A DNA stretch of 64,000 bases from Candidatus Doudnabacteria bacterium RIFCSPHIGHO2_01_FULL_46_14 (GTDB taxonomy: Bacteria > Patescibacteriota > Doudnabacteria > UBA920 > 2-01-FULL-46-14): positions 78,504 through 142,503 of the forward strand of contig MFEK01000016.1 of NCBI GenBank assembly GCA_001779925.1. The letters run 5' to 3'. Positions 4,592 to 49,690 of the stretch are shown in pieces. The position numbers and the translations under genes are program-made. The notes beneath the pieces are model-generated. The model had not been told where the DNA came from and ran no database searches. It saw only the letters and a list, made by a program, of their open reading frames with translations. How positions within the stretch are numbered: the stretch's first letter is position 1; the number at the start of each line of letters is the position of its first letter.

Positions 4592-4677
4592 AAAATGTTT
4601 GATTGAAAGAGCTGGCATCGGCATTGTATGATCACGGATTTTTCTGATCTCCACGAACATTTTTATCAAATACCGGA

Positions 4678-5058
4678 TTGGGGAAATATTTGAAAAAGGG
4701 GTATAATATATATCTATGTTTTGGCTGTACCAGGGGCAAAGACAGGCACTGTCAAAACAAGTACATCCAAGAAAAGGACATGATCGAGGAACTCCTGAAA
4801 ATCCTTAATCAGATAGACTTAAGTGAACTTGGAACGCGGCAAAAGCTTGAGGAAGAAATCAACCGGTTCCATAAATTCCAAAATACGGTACTCAAATCCA
4901 AGGATTCGGCTGGACAGAAAACAAGCCACATTGATATCCGGACCTATGCCAAATATCTGCTCAAGGAAGGCAGTATCACTGAGAAGCGAGAACTGTTGGC
5001 GAACCTGAAAAGCAAACTGGTGTACAAAGATAAAACAATCACACTACTCCAACAATAA
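4678..5058 (+). pseudogene. Remnant of a large serine recombinase: only the C-terminal zinc beta-ribbon and coiled-coil segment remains
   Basis: YNIYLCFGCTRGKDRHCQNKY followed by a coiled coil matches the recombinase zinc-ribbon domain. There is no catalytic domain. The frame opens just after a stop at 4645 and starts with TTG, not ATG. Confidence 0.5.
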
Positions 5059-5069
5059 CCGCTAAACAA

Positions 5070-5097
5070 CAACACCGCTTTTTAAAGCGGTGTTGTT
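5070..5097 (+). terminator. Terminator hairpin
   Basis: aacaacaccgctttttaaagcggtgttgtttt. Confidence 0.55.
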
Positions 5098-5167
5098 TTG
5101 GTTGCCACTCGATCTTGCTACCAGCGCCACCCGAGGTACTCGGGTCTCGCTCGATAACAAAATGTCG

Positions 5168-5257
5168 TGGCGGAGAGGGTGGGATTCGAACCCACGAGAC
5201 CCGATGAAAGGTCACAGTTTTCGAGACTGTCGCCTTGAACCACTTGGCTACCTCTCC
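5168..5257 (-). tRNA. tRNA-Ser(CGA)
   Basis: Hand-folded. Acceptor GGAGAGG/CCTCTCC, anticodon loop CTCGAAA, long variable arm, CCA encoded. Length 90 nt. Confidence 0.8.
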
Positions 5258-5496
5258 ATCTAAACTTAGTCCTATCAGTTTTTTAAATGCTCCACCACCT
5301 TTATAGCCCTTATTTGAAATTCTCGTCGGTAAGCATCCTGCTCAGTGAAAAATGTTTCATAATGCACTCGAACCGCCGTATTTCCGAAAAAATTGTTTCT
5401 TGGGATTTCAAAAAACCTTTTGATTTGCTTGCAAATCTTCCCGCCGACGAGCTTCGCTCGGAGGCGGCGTCATCAAAAAATTTGCAAAATTTCACT

Positions 5497-5570
5497 TGGT
5501 CGGGGTGCTGGGAATTGAACCCAGTCTACACGCACCCGAAGCGTGCGTACTACCGGCATACTCCACCCCG
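5497..5570 (-). tRNA. tRNA-Pro(CGG)
   Basis: Acceptor CGGGGTG/CACCCCG, anticodon stem CACGC/GCGTG, loop TTCGGGT, T-loop TTCAATT, CCA encoded. Confidence 0.75.
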
Positions 5571-5599
5571 AATGTGCTTTTGAATTTACTATTTAGTTT

Positions 5600-5650
5600 T
5601 GCCCCCAGAGGGAATCGAACCCCTATCTTGTCCTTAGGACGGATCTGCTC
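5600..5650 (-). pseudogene. Partial tRNA-Arg copy: the 3' half only, with no matching 5' acceptor strand
   Basis: About 50 nt nearly identical to the 3' half of the adjacent tRNA-Arg, including the anticodon arm and T-arm. The 5' portion is unrelated sequence. Confidence 0.55.
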
Positions 5651-5671
5651 CCCGCCCGCCTGACTCGTCTA

Positions 5672-5743
5672 TGTCCCTGGAGGGAATCGAACCCCCATCT
5701 TATCCTTAGGACGGATCTGCTCTATCCATTGAGCTACAGAGAC
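5672..5743 (-). tRNA. tRNA-Arg(CCU)
   Basis: Acceptor GTCTCTG/CAGGGAC, anticodon loop GTCCTAA, T-loop TTCGATT. CCA is not encoded. Confidence 0.75.
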
Positions 5744-5821
5744 GTCAGGCGAGTCGGGCGGGTATCCGCTTGTCCGACCTGGATCGGACTCCGACATTGG
5801 TCGGAGAGCTACGGGGACATG

Positions 5822-5895
5822 TGGTGGACCCGAGGGGAATCGGACCCCTGACTGCTCCATGCCATGGAGCCGTGTTACCATTATACTACGGGCCC
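5822..5895 (-). tRNA. tRNA-Ala(GGC)
   Basis: Acceptor GGGCCCG with the G3:U70 alanine identity pair, anticodon loop ATGGCAT, CCA encoded. Confidence 0.8.
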
Positions 5896-5977: not shown

Positions 5978-6640
5978 GTGATCACCCCAACCTACACTAA
6001 AGAATTAGAATTACTCCCGAATTACCGCCTTATTGCCGGCGTTGATGAGGTGGGCCGCGGGCCGCTCGCTGGGCCCGTAGTGTCAGCGGTTGTAATTCTC
6101 AATCCTGCAGCGGTTGGAAAATACCGTAGCAAGACCAAATGGTGGAGCGCGGTTCGCGACAGTAAAACCGTGCCAGGGCACAGACGGCAATCTTTGGCGG
6201 AATTCATAAAAGAGAACGCTATTGATTATGCCGTCGGTCTTGCTACGCATCGGGAGATTGATGAACTCAATATTCATTTTGCCTCACTGCTCTCCATGAA
6301 GCGTGCAGTAGAGAATCTGAAAATCTCACCCGATATCGTGCTCATAGATGGACTTTACAAAATTCCACATTCCATATTCCAGATTCAAACTATCGTAAAT
6401 GGCGACGCAAAAATTTTATCTATCGCGGCTGCTTCCATTCTCGCCAAAGTTTATCGCGATGATCTCATGAAAAAATATTCCGGAGAATTCCCAAATTTTG
6501 GTTTTGAAAAACATAAAGGCTACAATACTCTATTTCATAGAAAGGCGATTATTGCGCACGGCGCTTGTCCCATCCACCGCATGAGTTTTCCTGCTCTGCA
6601 AACAGTGATTAGCAAAAGATTTGCAAATCTGCTAAAATAG
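5978..6640 (+). CDS. rnhB: Ribonuclease HII
   Basis: LIAGVDEVGRGPLAGPVV active-site motif. GTG start. Confidence 0.85.
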   Translation: MITPTYTKELELLPNYRLIAGVDEVGRGPLAGPVVSAVVILNPAAVGKYRSKTKWWSAVRDSKTVPGHRRQSLAEFIKENAIDYAVGLATHREIDELNIHFASLLSMKRAVENLKISPDIVLIDGLYKIPHSIFQIQTIVNGDAKILSIAAASILAKVYRDDLMKKYSGEFPNFGFEKHKGYNTLFHRKAIIAHGACPIHRMSFPALQTVISKRFANLLK

Positions 6641-20520: not shown

Positions 20521-20541
20521 TCCCCTCCTCGTGAGGAGGGG
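20521..20541. repeat. GC-rich palindrome cccctcctcgtgaggagggg of the CCCCTCC/GGAGGGG family
   Basis: Perfect hairpin. It is followed by a second hairpin, gaagcaatctcgggtgggattgcttc. Confidence 0.6.
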
Positions 20542-37554: not shown

Positions 37555-37629
37555 TGGAGGCCAGGACGGGAATCGAACCCGTGCATCGCGGTTTTGCAGA
37601 CCGCAGCGTTACCACTTCGCCACCTGGCC
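37555..37629 (-). tRNA. tRNA-Cys(GCA)
   Basis: Acceptor GGCCAGG, discriminator U73, anticodon stem GCGGT/ACCGC, loop CTGCAAA, CCA encoded. Confidence 0.8.
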
Positions 37630-48584: not shown

Positions 48585-48661
48585 GGGCGTGTAGCTCAGC
48601 TGGTTAGAGCATCTGTCTTATACACAGAATGTCCCTGGTTCGAATCCAGGCACGCCCACCA
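48585..48661 (+). tRNA. tRNA-Ile(UAU)
   Basis: Acceptor GGGCGTG/CACGCCC, anticodon stem TCTGT/ACAGA, loop CTTATAC, CCA encoded. The UAU anticodon is unusual. Confidence 0.7.
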
Positions 48662-48676
48662 CTACAAAATAAAATT

Positions 48677-49690
48677 ATGGTTGATCAATCACTAGTTTCC
48701 TATATCAAACAAAACATTCGGGACGGGTTTCCGCAAAACGAAATCCAGACCGCGCTTGTTAGTGCCGGCTGGGAAACCGCGGACATTAATGAAGCATTTA
48801 TCCAGGCTGGCCTTATGCCGCAGTCCAAAGCCGCGCCTGTGAATCTACCTCCCGAACTTGCAGGAGAGGGCCTGACCTACAGTCCGACAGAGCACACCTC
48901 TTTTTTGGCGAGACACGGAAGGCTTTTGATAGTTATTGTCGTGATGATCATCCTGTTGCCAGTGCTCGCTTACGGCGGGTTTTGGGCTTACCAGCGGTAT
49001 GCTGTGAAGTCCGAGAATCTCCCGACCCAAGTCGGGATCCCGACAGAGGTCGGGACACCGCCGCCAGCAGCTCCGCAAATCGATGCCCAAGCCGTAATCC
49101 GCGACGAACAGCGGCTCAAAGACATCGAGAGTCTGCAAACTGCGCTGGAAACATATTTTACCGCGAAAAAAACTTACCCCAAGCTGCTTGACGAACTCAT
49201 GGCCGAAAAAATTCTCACGAGCGTACCCACAGATCCAAAAAGCGGGGTACAGTATTTATACAGTCCCTTTGGCCAAACAAGCACTGATTATTCTCTGTCC
49301 TTTATCTTGGAGTCTGACATCGGTACTCTCAAAAAAGGTTTGAACGAAGTCAGCCCCGGCAAACCTCTCAAACCAGAGATAATCAAAAGCCAGGAAGAAG
49401 CAGTGAGGGGCGCCACCACAAAGCCGATCTCGGCCAGTTTACAAATCACTGACCTCTCGCAATCTCCTTTTTACGCAGGCGAAGAGGTGACTGTCAGCAT
49501 AAATTCCTCTGTCGCGCTTGACCAGGTTTTTCTTCTGGTCAACCACATGAAACTTACCGACGAACATTTTCCTTTTAATATCCGCTTTTCAGCGCCGAGA
49601 AATCCCGGAGAATATCCCGTGCAAATCTTTGGCTTCACTAATGATGGGGAGACTTTTATTCAGGCCACAAAATTAACGGTTAAACCTTAG
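48677..49690 (+). CDS. Hypothetical single-pass membrane protein with a large extracytoplasmic domain
   Basis: Start moved to ATG 48677, because the track start lies inside the tRNA. TM helix LLIVIVVMIILLPVLAYGGFWAY. Confidence 0.5.
   Translation: MVDQSLVSYIKQNIRDGFPQNEIQTALVSAGWETADINEAFIQAGLMPQSKAAPVNLPPELAGEGLTYSPTEHTSFLARHGRLLIVIVVMIILLPVLAYGGFWAYQRYAVKSENLPTQVGIPTEVGTPPPAAPQIDAQAVIRDEQRLKDIESLQTALETYFTAKKTYPKLLDELMAEKILTSVPTDPKSGVQYLYSPFGQTSTDYSLSFILESDIGTLKKGLNEVSPGKPLKPEIIKSQEEAVRGATTKPISASLQITDLSQSPFYAGEEVTVSINSSVALDQVFLLVNHMKLTDEHFPFNIRFSAPRNPGEYPVQIFGFTNDGETFIQATKLTVKP

Follow-up and report, generated by a model that had tools for sequence, protein, structure and literature searches.

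The DNA stretch analyzed here, hereafter called the window, comprises 64 kb from an uncultured Candidatus Doudnabacteria-like bacterium of groundwater, which belongs to the Candidate Phyla Radiation (CPR; Patescibacteria), and contains a minus-strand tRNA operon with an interrupted tRNA-Arg gene. ARAGORN and Rfam identified the operon in the order Ala-Arg-Pro-Ser. All of the genes are on the minus strand: tRNA-Ala(GGC) (5822-5895), which is the first gene of the operon, an intact tRNA-Arg(CCU) (5672-5743; 60.2 bits against the Rfam tRNA model), tRNA-Pro(CGG) (5497-5570), and tRNA-Ser(CGA) (5168-5257). The sole promoter-like site on the operon strand lies upstream of tRNA-Ala (5946->5918). As far as structure is concerned, it is nearly certain that the complete tRNA-Arg(CCU) gene sits within a disrupted resident tRNA-Arg(CCU) gene. 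We refer to the complete, working gene as the inner gene and to the disrupted gene as the outer gene. Ordinary tRNA finders report the inner gene only and miss the outer fragments.

The resident tRNA-Arg is split between tRNA positions 13 and 22, and its 8-nt D-loop has been replaced by a 155-nt insert, which consists of a hairpin-rich leader of 62 nt, the complete tRNA-Arg(CCU) of 72 nt, and a trailer of 21 nt. The outer 5' fragment (GTCCCCGTAGCTC; 13 nt, minus strand, 5818->5806) begins 3 nt past the CCA of tRNA-Ala and contains the 5' strand of the acceptor stem, U8/A9, and the 5' strand of the D-stem. It matches the 5' end of the inner tRNA at 11 of 13 positions and that of the tRNA-Arg of a related locus, L188, at 13 of 13. 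The outer 3' fragment (51 nt, minus strand, 5650->5600) extends from the 3' strand of the D-stem (GAGC) to the discriminator. The two outer fragments still form a fully paired acceptor stem (7/7), in which the 5' fragment pairs with the 3' strand TGGGGGC at 5601-5607. Since a 5' fragment is present and the 3' copy starts exactly at GAGC, we concluded that both belong to one tRNA-Arg(CCU) gene split at the D-loop. A match such as that of the 5' fragment is expected approximately 0.52 times in the whole window, counting both strands, which scales to approximately 3e-4 for the 78-nt Ala-Arg spacer.

A first-pass annotation of this DNA had described a duplication of the 3' ~50 nt of tRNA-Arg at 5600-5650, and the alignment that it proposed as a check confirms this: the direct repeat 5600-5650/5672-5722 is 51 nt long, with 46 of the 51 positions identical (90%). 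The 5' fragment at 5806-5818, which lies outside the interval considered (4648-5760), was overlooked there. The inner and outer copies are 89% identical overall (57/64). No tRNA in the window other than tRNA-Arg has a long partial copy (that of tRNA-Arg is a 43-nt match to 5650-5608); the remaining cross-matches between tRNAs are 13-19 nt in length and are mostly common T-arm motifs. No target-site duplication was found at the insert junctions; instead, the 8-nt D-loop was deleted. The insert contains no ORF. An uninterrupted empty-site allele would read GTAGCTC-AATGGATA-GAGC.

The leader (5744-5805, minus strand) was defined by its sequence and fold. It contains two hairpins (5805->5790 and 5789->5772), a conserved block (GTCGGACAAGC, 5778->5768), a short third hairpin, and a GC-rich arm; the leader arm of an inverted repeat spans 5762->5744. 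The trailer (5651-5671, minus strand) was recognized by its sequence and its complementarity to the leader, and it carries the other arm of the repeat (GACGAGTCAGGCGGGCGGG, 5669->5651). The arms at 5640-5664 and 5744-5768 are 72% complementary, and this value increases to 91% in the core (5651-5661/5752-5762). The inverted repeat that was previously described as bracketing the tRNA is thus present; however, it is not a frame of its own, but the leader/trailer pair of the insert. The predicted leader-trailer duplex (-36 kcal/mol) is the strongest among the 110 tRNAs of the window and all fetched loci (median -11.6). RNAfold predicted a nested cloverleaf composed of the outer acceptor stem, the leader-trailer helix, and the inner cloverleaf (z = -3.2).

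No second copy of the leader or trailer was found anywhere in the window, and both are absent from the spacers of relatives. A double hairpin at 49020-49055 (TCCCGACCCAAGTCGGGA TCCCGACAGAGGTCGGGA) was considered as a copy of the leader and rejected; it lies inside ORF 48629-49690, where it encodes the peptide repeat PTQVG/PTEVG, and the resemblance was judged to be coincidental. The leader matched no Rfam family and no sigma-70 promoter within its 62 nt, and the insert matched no Rfam intron or ribozyme model at E<=1 and has no group I ribozyme core. The left arm of the repeat is located 43 nt inside the insert, and, thus, the ends are not terminal inverted repeats of the type that bounds transposons or miniature inverted-repeat transposable elements. 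A search of a phage database returned ordinary phage tRNA-Arg genes at 75-80% identity only and left the leader and trailer unmatched.

Homologues of the RNase HII gene (window 5978-6640), several of the closest named ones being annotated as Candidatus Doudnabacteria, were used as anchors, and the syntenic cluster was compared in eleven other lineages. The nested layout was present in three independent assemblies (L001, L002, and L003), which were obtained from different samples with different assemblers. L001 and L002 were identical over the region, and L003 was 99.4% identical, with three SNPs in 498 nt, one of which is inside the nest (at 5652, in the trailer). The concordance of these three assemblies indicates that the nested layout is not an assembly artefact.

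Locus L005, the RNase HII of which is 75% identical, has the cluster in its compact, ancestral form (Ala-3nt-Arg-27nt-Pro-2nt-Ser) with a single tRNA-Arg. The acceptor pair of this tRNA-Arg is GCCCCCG/TGGGGGC, and the window outer fragment has the identical 3' strand. In the window, tRNA-Pro starts 29 nt past the outer 3' fragment, and the final ~17 nt of this spacer resemble L016. Since the outer fragments match L005 in position (3 nt after tRNA-Ala, with the 29-nt spacer to tRNA-Pro) and in the acceptor 3' strand, the outer gene is the resident gene, and the inner gene therefore came with the insert. The acceptor stems of the two differ at three base pairs, and the inner tRNA-Arg is closest to that of L188 (67/72).

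The outer fragments differ from the L005 orthologue by one change that creates a wobble pair and two changes that break stems (A28.C42 and A49.C65). The outer gene also lacks the entire D-loop and, hence, A20, whereas the inner tRNA-Arg has G18, G19, and A20 in its D-loop. A20 is a major identity element for arginyl-tRNA synthetase in Escherichia coli. Based on the missing D-loop and A20 together with the new stem mismatches, the outer gene appears to be a young pseudogene, and its fragments are presumably non-functional leftovers.

The tRNA-Arg event was also found in two further lineages of Doudnabacteria, L101/L102 and L016-L018, each with approximately 63-66% RNase HII identity. L101/L102 have the full nest. 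The 5' fragment (GCCCCGGTAGCT, 2350-2361) is located 3 nt past tRNA-Ala and is accompanied by a 55-nt leader with the junction hairpin TCCGCC/GGCGGA, the inner tRNA-Arg (2417-2488), a trailer of 19 nt whose sequence complements that of the leader (CCCCATCACCT/AGGTGATTGGG), and a 3' fragment of 44 nt (2508-2551) that begins with GAGC and has well-paired anticodon and T arms of its own. The CCCCATCACCT/AGGTGATTGGG pair is unrelated in sequence to the leader/trailer pair of the window, and the outer acceptor strands pair at only 4 of 7 positions. The outer fragment reaches only ~62% identity with any other tRNA-Arg, but the inner tRNA matches that of L188 at 69 of 72 positions (96%); therefore, the inner allele of L101 was clearly imported. 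L016-L018 have a 12-nt 5' fragment, a homologous leader of 103 nt, and a complete tRNA-Arg, but no 3' fragment.

The insertion junction follows the 5' strand of the D-stem in the window, L101, and L016 alike. The three leaders are homologous and share a covarying junction hairpin (TCCGAC/GTCGGA, TCCGCC/GGCGGA, and TCCACC/GGCGGA; consensus TCCRNC..GNYGGA). The block GNCKGACAASC is present in all three, 31-45 nt further in, and nowhere else in 189 kb of related DNA. In a neighbor-joining tree of RNase HII, the lineages with a nest or leader are dispersed among those in which the gene is plain (L005, L009-12, L099, L184, and L188). This scattered distribution suggests several independent insertions or repeated precise losses.

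Similar layouts, in which a tRNA fragment is followed by an insert and a complete tRNA, were found at tRNA-Ser and tRNA-Pro in relatives, with an endonuclease gene as the cargo in two cases. In L010, L011, and L009, a 22-nt 5' fragment of tRNA-Ser, which runs through the D-loop, lies at the ancestral position 3 nt after tRNA-Pro and is followed by a 331-aa ORF with a double LAGLIDADG domain (41 bits against a cut-off of 22.5) and then by a complete, different tRNA-Ser. The arrangement occupies 1122-2170 in L010, with the 5' fragment at 2170->2149, and the stop codon of the L010 ORF falls within the new tRNA-Ser. In L016 (3715-4197), a predicted GIY-YIG gene is located between an intact tRNA-Ser(CGA) and the displaced 3' end of the old copy, which starts in the T-loop (TTC|GAAT). 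In L101 (3701-3943) and L013 (949-1106), an intact tRNA-Ser(CGA) is followed by an older copy truncated at its 5' end, with the T-loop split at the same point; the filler is a 42-nt GC-rich palindrome in L101 and a 37-nt GC-rich insert in L013. The palindrome of L101 ends in CAGGCGGG, as does the core of the window trailer.

At tRNA-Pro, L016 has a 21-nt copy of the tRNA 5' end before the gene, followed by two GC-rich hairpins (2423-2475), L099 has decayed copies upstream of the working gene (1789-1820), and L101 has a perfect 13-nt inverted repeat that encloses the gene, with a mini-remnant (acceptor and T arm) after it (2551-2697). The spacer between tRNA-Pro and tRNA-Ser in the window (5258-5496, minus strand) is 239 nt in length, whereas that in L005 is 2 nt. 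Within it lie a T-arm-like sequence (GGCGGTTCGAGTGC) and, at 5440-5469, a GC-rich hairpin of 30 nt (CGCCGCC..GGCGGG). This spacer shows no similarity to the other loci that were fetched and probably represents a further remnant of an insertion. We concluded that the tRNA cluster is a hot spot for insertions. A possible recombination between tRNA genes was also noted in one Rifle scaffold, L009, in which 2814-2895 is a tRNA-Ala/tRNA-Pro hybrid with tRNA-Arg deleted (joined as GGTCGGGG|TACGCACGC). The sister contigs L010 and L011 keep all three genes, and the L009 fusion is either a real recombination of tRNA genes or an assembly collapse.

A remnant of a large serine recombinase gene lies beyond the operon on the plus strand. 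ORF 4678-5058 starts with TTG and converges on tRNA-Ser, with 110 nt between its end and the 3' end of the tRNA; a hairpin lies beyond it (5068-5097). It shows a sub-threshold match to Zn_ribbon_recom (PF13408; 18 bits against a cut-off of 25.3) that covers profile positions 18-54 only. It aligns to the C-terminal ~115 residues (within residues ~270-440) of proteins of 425-563 aa, with 34-42% identity to those checked, and four of these homologues were confirmed to have the Resolvase, Recombinase, and Zn-ribbon domains. Of a large serine recombinase, only the coiled-coil tail and the second half of the zinc ribbon are represented (4684-5058). In contrast to these enzymes, the ORF has no Pfam match to Resolvase (PF00239), the Recombinase domain (PF07508) is absent, and the first Cys pair (CxxC) of the zinc ribbon is missing. 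No N-terminal recombinase fragment was found elsewhere in the window. The late start of homology at nt 4684, the missing Cys pair, and the absence of an N-terminal part indicate that the ORF is a gene fragment, as the first-pass annotation had stated in describing a recombinase tail with neither a catalytic domain nor an ATG.

The same annotation linked this fragment to the tRNA-Arg duplication. The ORF is indeed a truncated large serine recombinase gene; however, it is located ~540 nt from the tRNA-Arg copies, and tRNA-Pro, the 239-nt spacer, tRNA-Ser, and 30 nt of native tRNA-Ser 3' flank (5138-5167) lie between. The segment 5138-5187 is 94% identical to L101 3896-3943, which comprises the displaced tRNA-Ser end and its flank. 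With two tRNA genes and a conserved native flank between them, nothing links the remnant to the tRNA-Arg event, and the remnant is probably an independent, older scar beside tRNA-Ser. The possibility that it represents one half of a gene split by integration was rejected: no N-terminal half is present in the window, and the homologues are truncated at ragged positions. In L184 (4962-6549), the 3' end of a full-length large serine recombinase gene (522 aa) overlaps tRNA-Ser(CGA) on the opposite strand. This arrangement fits an element integrated at tRNA-Ser(CGA), and the enzyme is only distantly related to the window remnant. In the relatives, tRNA-Ser(CGA) is the site of the classical scars of integration and of this full-length recombinase, which belongs to another lineage.

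Several further features of the remnant and its tRNA-Ser side were noted. With few exceptions, close homologues across CPR (P0271-P0333) are only 72-206 aa in length, including those on contigs of 20-190 kb, and their N-termini are ragged; a subgroup of 91-92 aa starts at a common position ((M/L)I.ELLKI). These short tails could result from frequent decay that spares the 3' end, or they could be C-terminal fragments that were kept for a separate function. A homologous fragment on a 37-kb contig (L192) has no tRNA nearby. In addition, a 10-nt perfect inverted copy of the junction between the variable arm and T-stem of tRNA-Ser (TCGGGTCTCG, 5140-5149/5195-5204) is located in a hairpin at 5123-5151. 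It coincides with the end of the similarity to the L101 flank (~5138), which may mark a recombination boundary.

On balance, we favor the view, as rather probable, that a recurrent, site-specific, homing-like insertion replaced the resident tRNA-Arg with another allele and that the old halves are now decaying. The same insertion site and the patchy presence among close relatives are as expected of a homing-type event. An endonuclease gene is found neither within nor beside the window insert and occurs only in relatives, at tRNA-Ser. For the homing mechanism itself, we regard the case as evenly balanced. In this mechanism, the resident tRNA-Arg would be cut at a specific site in the region of its D-loop, and repair of this double-strand break would copy in the cassette; alternatively, the cassette might have been brought in by illegitimate recombination. 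The cassette would destroy its target site and compensate by supplying a complete tRNA. The whole unit may be transcribed from the promoter upstream of tRNA-Ala, after which RNase P and a 3' nuclease would release the inner tRNA, perhaps aided by the leader-trailer helix, and the outer pieces would be discarded. Since no endonuclease gene is present in the insert or in the 64 kb, the window insert appears to be a decayed or non-autonomous version. We also put forward, tentatively and as a possibility that we would not yet expect to hold, that CPR bacteria harbor small, site-specific tRNA replacement cassettes, which home into the D-loop (into the T-loop for other tRNAs) and carry a complete allelic tRNA and a processing helix that would make up for the damage without any splicing. 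A homing element of this kind would reside in an essential RNA gene without being an intron.

Several points weigh against homing-like replacement. A single-gene tree is a weak basis for independent gains, and the examples come from only three lineages. A scan of genome contigs with an RNase HII alignment returned generic RNase HII at <=51% identity and no Doudnabacteria. A pattern scan of metagenome contigs (the tRNA-Ala end, tRNA-Arg 5' fragment, and leader start) gave 79 matches, all by chance in coding DNA with no tRNA nearby, from a collection that evidently does not contain these genomes. Scans of viral contigs for paired tRNA-Arg anticodon arms 55-85 nt apart, the inner allele, and the LAGLIDADG protein gave one unrelated match only. 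The window contains no homologue of the LAGLIDADG or GIY-YIG proteins of the relatives, and, thus, the insertion agent is one that we infer. The tRNA-Arg leaders are unlike the flanks of the LAGLIDADG insert, and different elements may therefore have been involved at tRNA-Ser and at tRNA-Arg. The argument for an imported inner allele is strong for L101 and weak for the window (67/72 vs 64/72). Moreover, the complementarity between leader and trailer is maintained with unrelated sequences in the window and L101, which a pure scar does not explain and which hints at a role at the RNA level.

Other explanations were weighed against homing-like replacement. The first-pass annotation had read the two tRNA-Arg copies as the attL/attR pair of a collapsed integrative element, in which a serine recombinase targeted the 3' end of tRNA-Arg and a later deletion left 21 bp and a recombinase fragment. 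The direct orientation of the complete copy and 3' partial copy and the recombinase remnant nearby agree with this reading, and integration normally gives one complete and one partial tRNA copy at the opposite ends of the element (PMC9897764). However, we consider it highly unlikely because the 5' fragment at the ancestral position contradicts it, and because neither this fragment nor the 62-nt leader and the junctions in the D-loop are explained. The intact gene lies wholly inside the insert, the old gene has left a piece on each side, and the restored copy does not combine host with element sequence. The repeats do not enclose the recombinase remnant, only 21 nt separate the two copies, and L101 has the same nest with no recombinase nearby. 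The D-loop is not among the integrase sublocations in tRNA genes that Williams reportedly described in 2002, which are the anticodon loop, the T-loop, and the 3' end. Thus, DNA was inserted at a tRNA gene and the partial copy is the scar that this left, as had been proposed, but the two copies are not the attL/attR pair of an element that targets the 3' end. A one-off local rearrangement without any mobile agent, such as a tandem duplication of tRNA-Arg with illegitimate recombination or slippage at the hairpins, is also unlikely, though less far-fetched. It would agree with the 89% identity of the inner and outer copies, with a palindrome-rich region that could promote slippage, and with the lack of an enzyme gene in the insert. 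Against it, a homologous leader occurs at the same junction in three lineages that are separated by plain-gene lineages, the full nest with its leader/trailer design is common to two of the three, the inner allele of L101 is clearly foreign to the resident gene, and the leader and trailer are not found in the spacers of relatives.

The outer gene may instead be a functional disrupted tRNA. In this case, the insert would behave like an intron or other intervening sequence: RNase P and a 3' nuclease would excise the inner tRNA, and the outer halves, held together by the acceptor stem, D-stem, and GC-rich leader-trailer helix, would be ligated or act in two pieces, in the manner of archaeal split tRNAs or fragmented rRNAs. 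The outer acceptor stem is fully paired, the D-stem closes off the insert in the predicted fold, the leader/trailer complementarity is kept with different sequences in the window and L101, and archaeal split tRNAs with GC-rich complementary flanks are known (PMC3218864). We nonetheless regard this as barely plausible. The outer RNA would have neither the D-loop nor A20 and has two new stem mismatches relative to its orthologue, the outer acceptor of L101 pairs at only 4 of 7 positions, L016 has no 3' fragment, and no Rfam intron was matched. By inspection, the D-stem runs on into a helix (UCCG/CGGG) without 3-nt bulges. Furthermore, with an intact isoacceptor inside, nothing selects for the outer copy. 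A chimeric join of tRNA-Arg strain variants during assembly is scarcely credible. The source is metagenomic, and repeats of ~50 nt can confuse assemblers, but the three assemblies described above agree, and neither of the unique sequences, of 62 nt and 21 nt, is a repeat.

Other observations in the window do not concern this locus. A dispersed family of hairpins (CCCCTCC...GGAGGGG) is present at 20522, 24782, 24921, 30666, 31061, 31628, 34378, 34405, 37127, 37525, 37704, 47161, 52274, and 58665. Copies flank tRNA-Cys (37555-37629) on both sides, and the hairpin also occurs beside tRNA-Leu(UAA). These hairpins may be terminators or a family of REP-like repeats. A tRNA-Ile with the anticodon UAU, which is uncommon in bacteria, was found at 48585-48661.

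Partial tRNA copies are routinely read as the att scars of integrases. The window presents a case of different origin that ordinary annotation misses, and it is a practical caution that tRNA fragments alone are unsafe for delimiting genomic islands. If the insert is a mobile cassette, it would represent, in addition to self-splicing introns and inteins, a third way for selfish insertions to persist inside essential genes. It would also document the horizontal replacement of tRNA alleles in the reduced genomes of CPR bacteria, would offer a route by which tRNA alleles whose acceptor stems are altered could turn over horizontally, and would tie the many small GIY-YIG and LAGLIDADG genes beside CPR tRNAs to a concrete target. 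The significance is limited by the small sample and by an outer gene that is likely non-functional. The literature that we covered, which was partial, contained no description of a bacterial tRNA gene that holds another, complete tRNA gene in its D-loop or of insertions in CPR tRNA genes.

The locus resembles several known systems in part. As with phages, integrative and conjugative elements, and islands that target tRNA genes, the incoming DNA restores a functional tRNA and leaves a displaced partial copy as a scar. However, what the window insert brings is not a replacement for the 3' (or 5') end but an entire tRNA, including an acceptor stem of its own; it leaves fragments on both sides with junctions in the D-loop, and it is 155 bp in length without an integrase. 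Self-splicing group I introns occur in bacterial tRNA genes, such as tRNA-Leu(UAA) and the tRNA-Arg(CCU) of alpha-proteobacteria. The introns of bacterial tRNA genes are of the group I type and sit in the anticodon loop, and tRNA fragments are otherwise ascribed to integrases or CRISPR (PMC9897764, PMC3218864). The window insert is similar to these introns in that it is an intervening sequence in a bacterial tRNA gene, and group I introns are sometimes mobile through a homing endonuclease. It differs in its D-loop site, in having no ribozyme, and in rescue by a replacement gene rather than by splicing; 72 of its 155 nt are tRNA. Disrupted tRNA genes that depend on the bulge-helix-bulge motif are known from Archaea and algae (PMC9897764, PMC3218864). 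These genes, whether split, permuted, or interrupted by introns at non-canonical sites, share with the window locus a break in the D-arm region and GC-rich complementary sequences beside the breakpoints. In contrast, the host here is a bacterium, no bulge-helix-bulge was seen by inspection, the interrupted gene is apparently dead and redundant, and the intervening sequence is itself a tRNA gene.

The SegB endonuclease of phage T4 offers a further comparison. It is a GIY-YIG homing endonuclease encoded in a tRNA cluster, recognizes the T-loop motif GGTTCRANTCC of tRNA genes, and drives the inheritance of its own gene together with the neighboring tRNA genes (PMC2330249). These genes are copied into the allele that was cut. 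Unlike the SegB system, the window insert has no endonuclease gene and lies within a tRNA D-loop, both old halves flank the new gene, and the locus is part of a cellular CPR chromosome rather than a phage genome. The two are alike in that a conserved loop motif in tRNA genes is targeted, resident tRNA markers are replaced, and the distribution among close relatives is patchy. In addition, GIY-YIG and LAGLIDADG genes are present at equivalent junctions in the relatives of the window locus.

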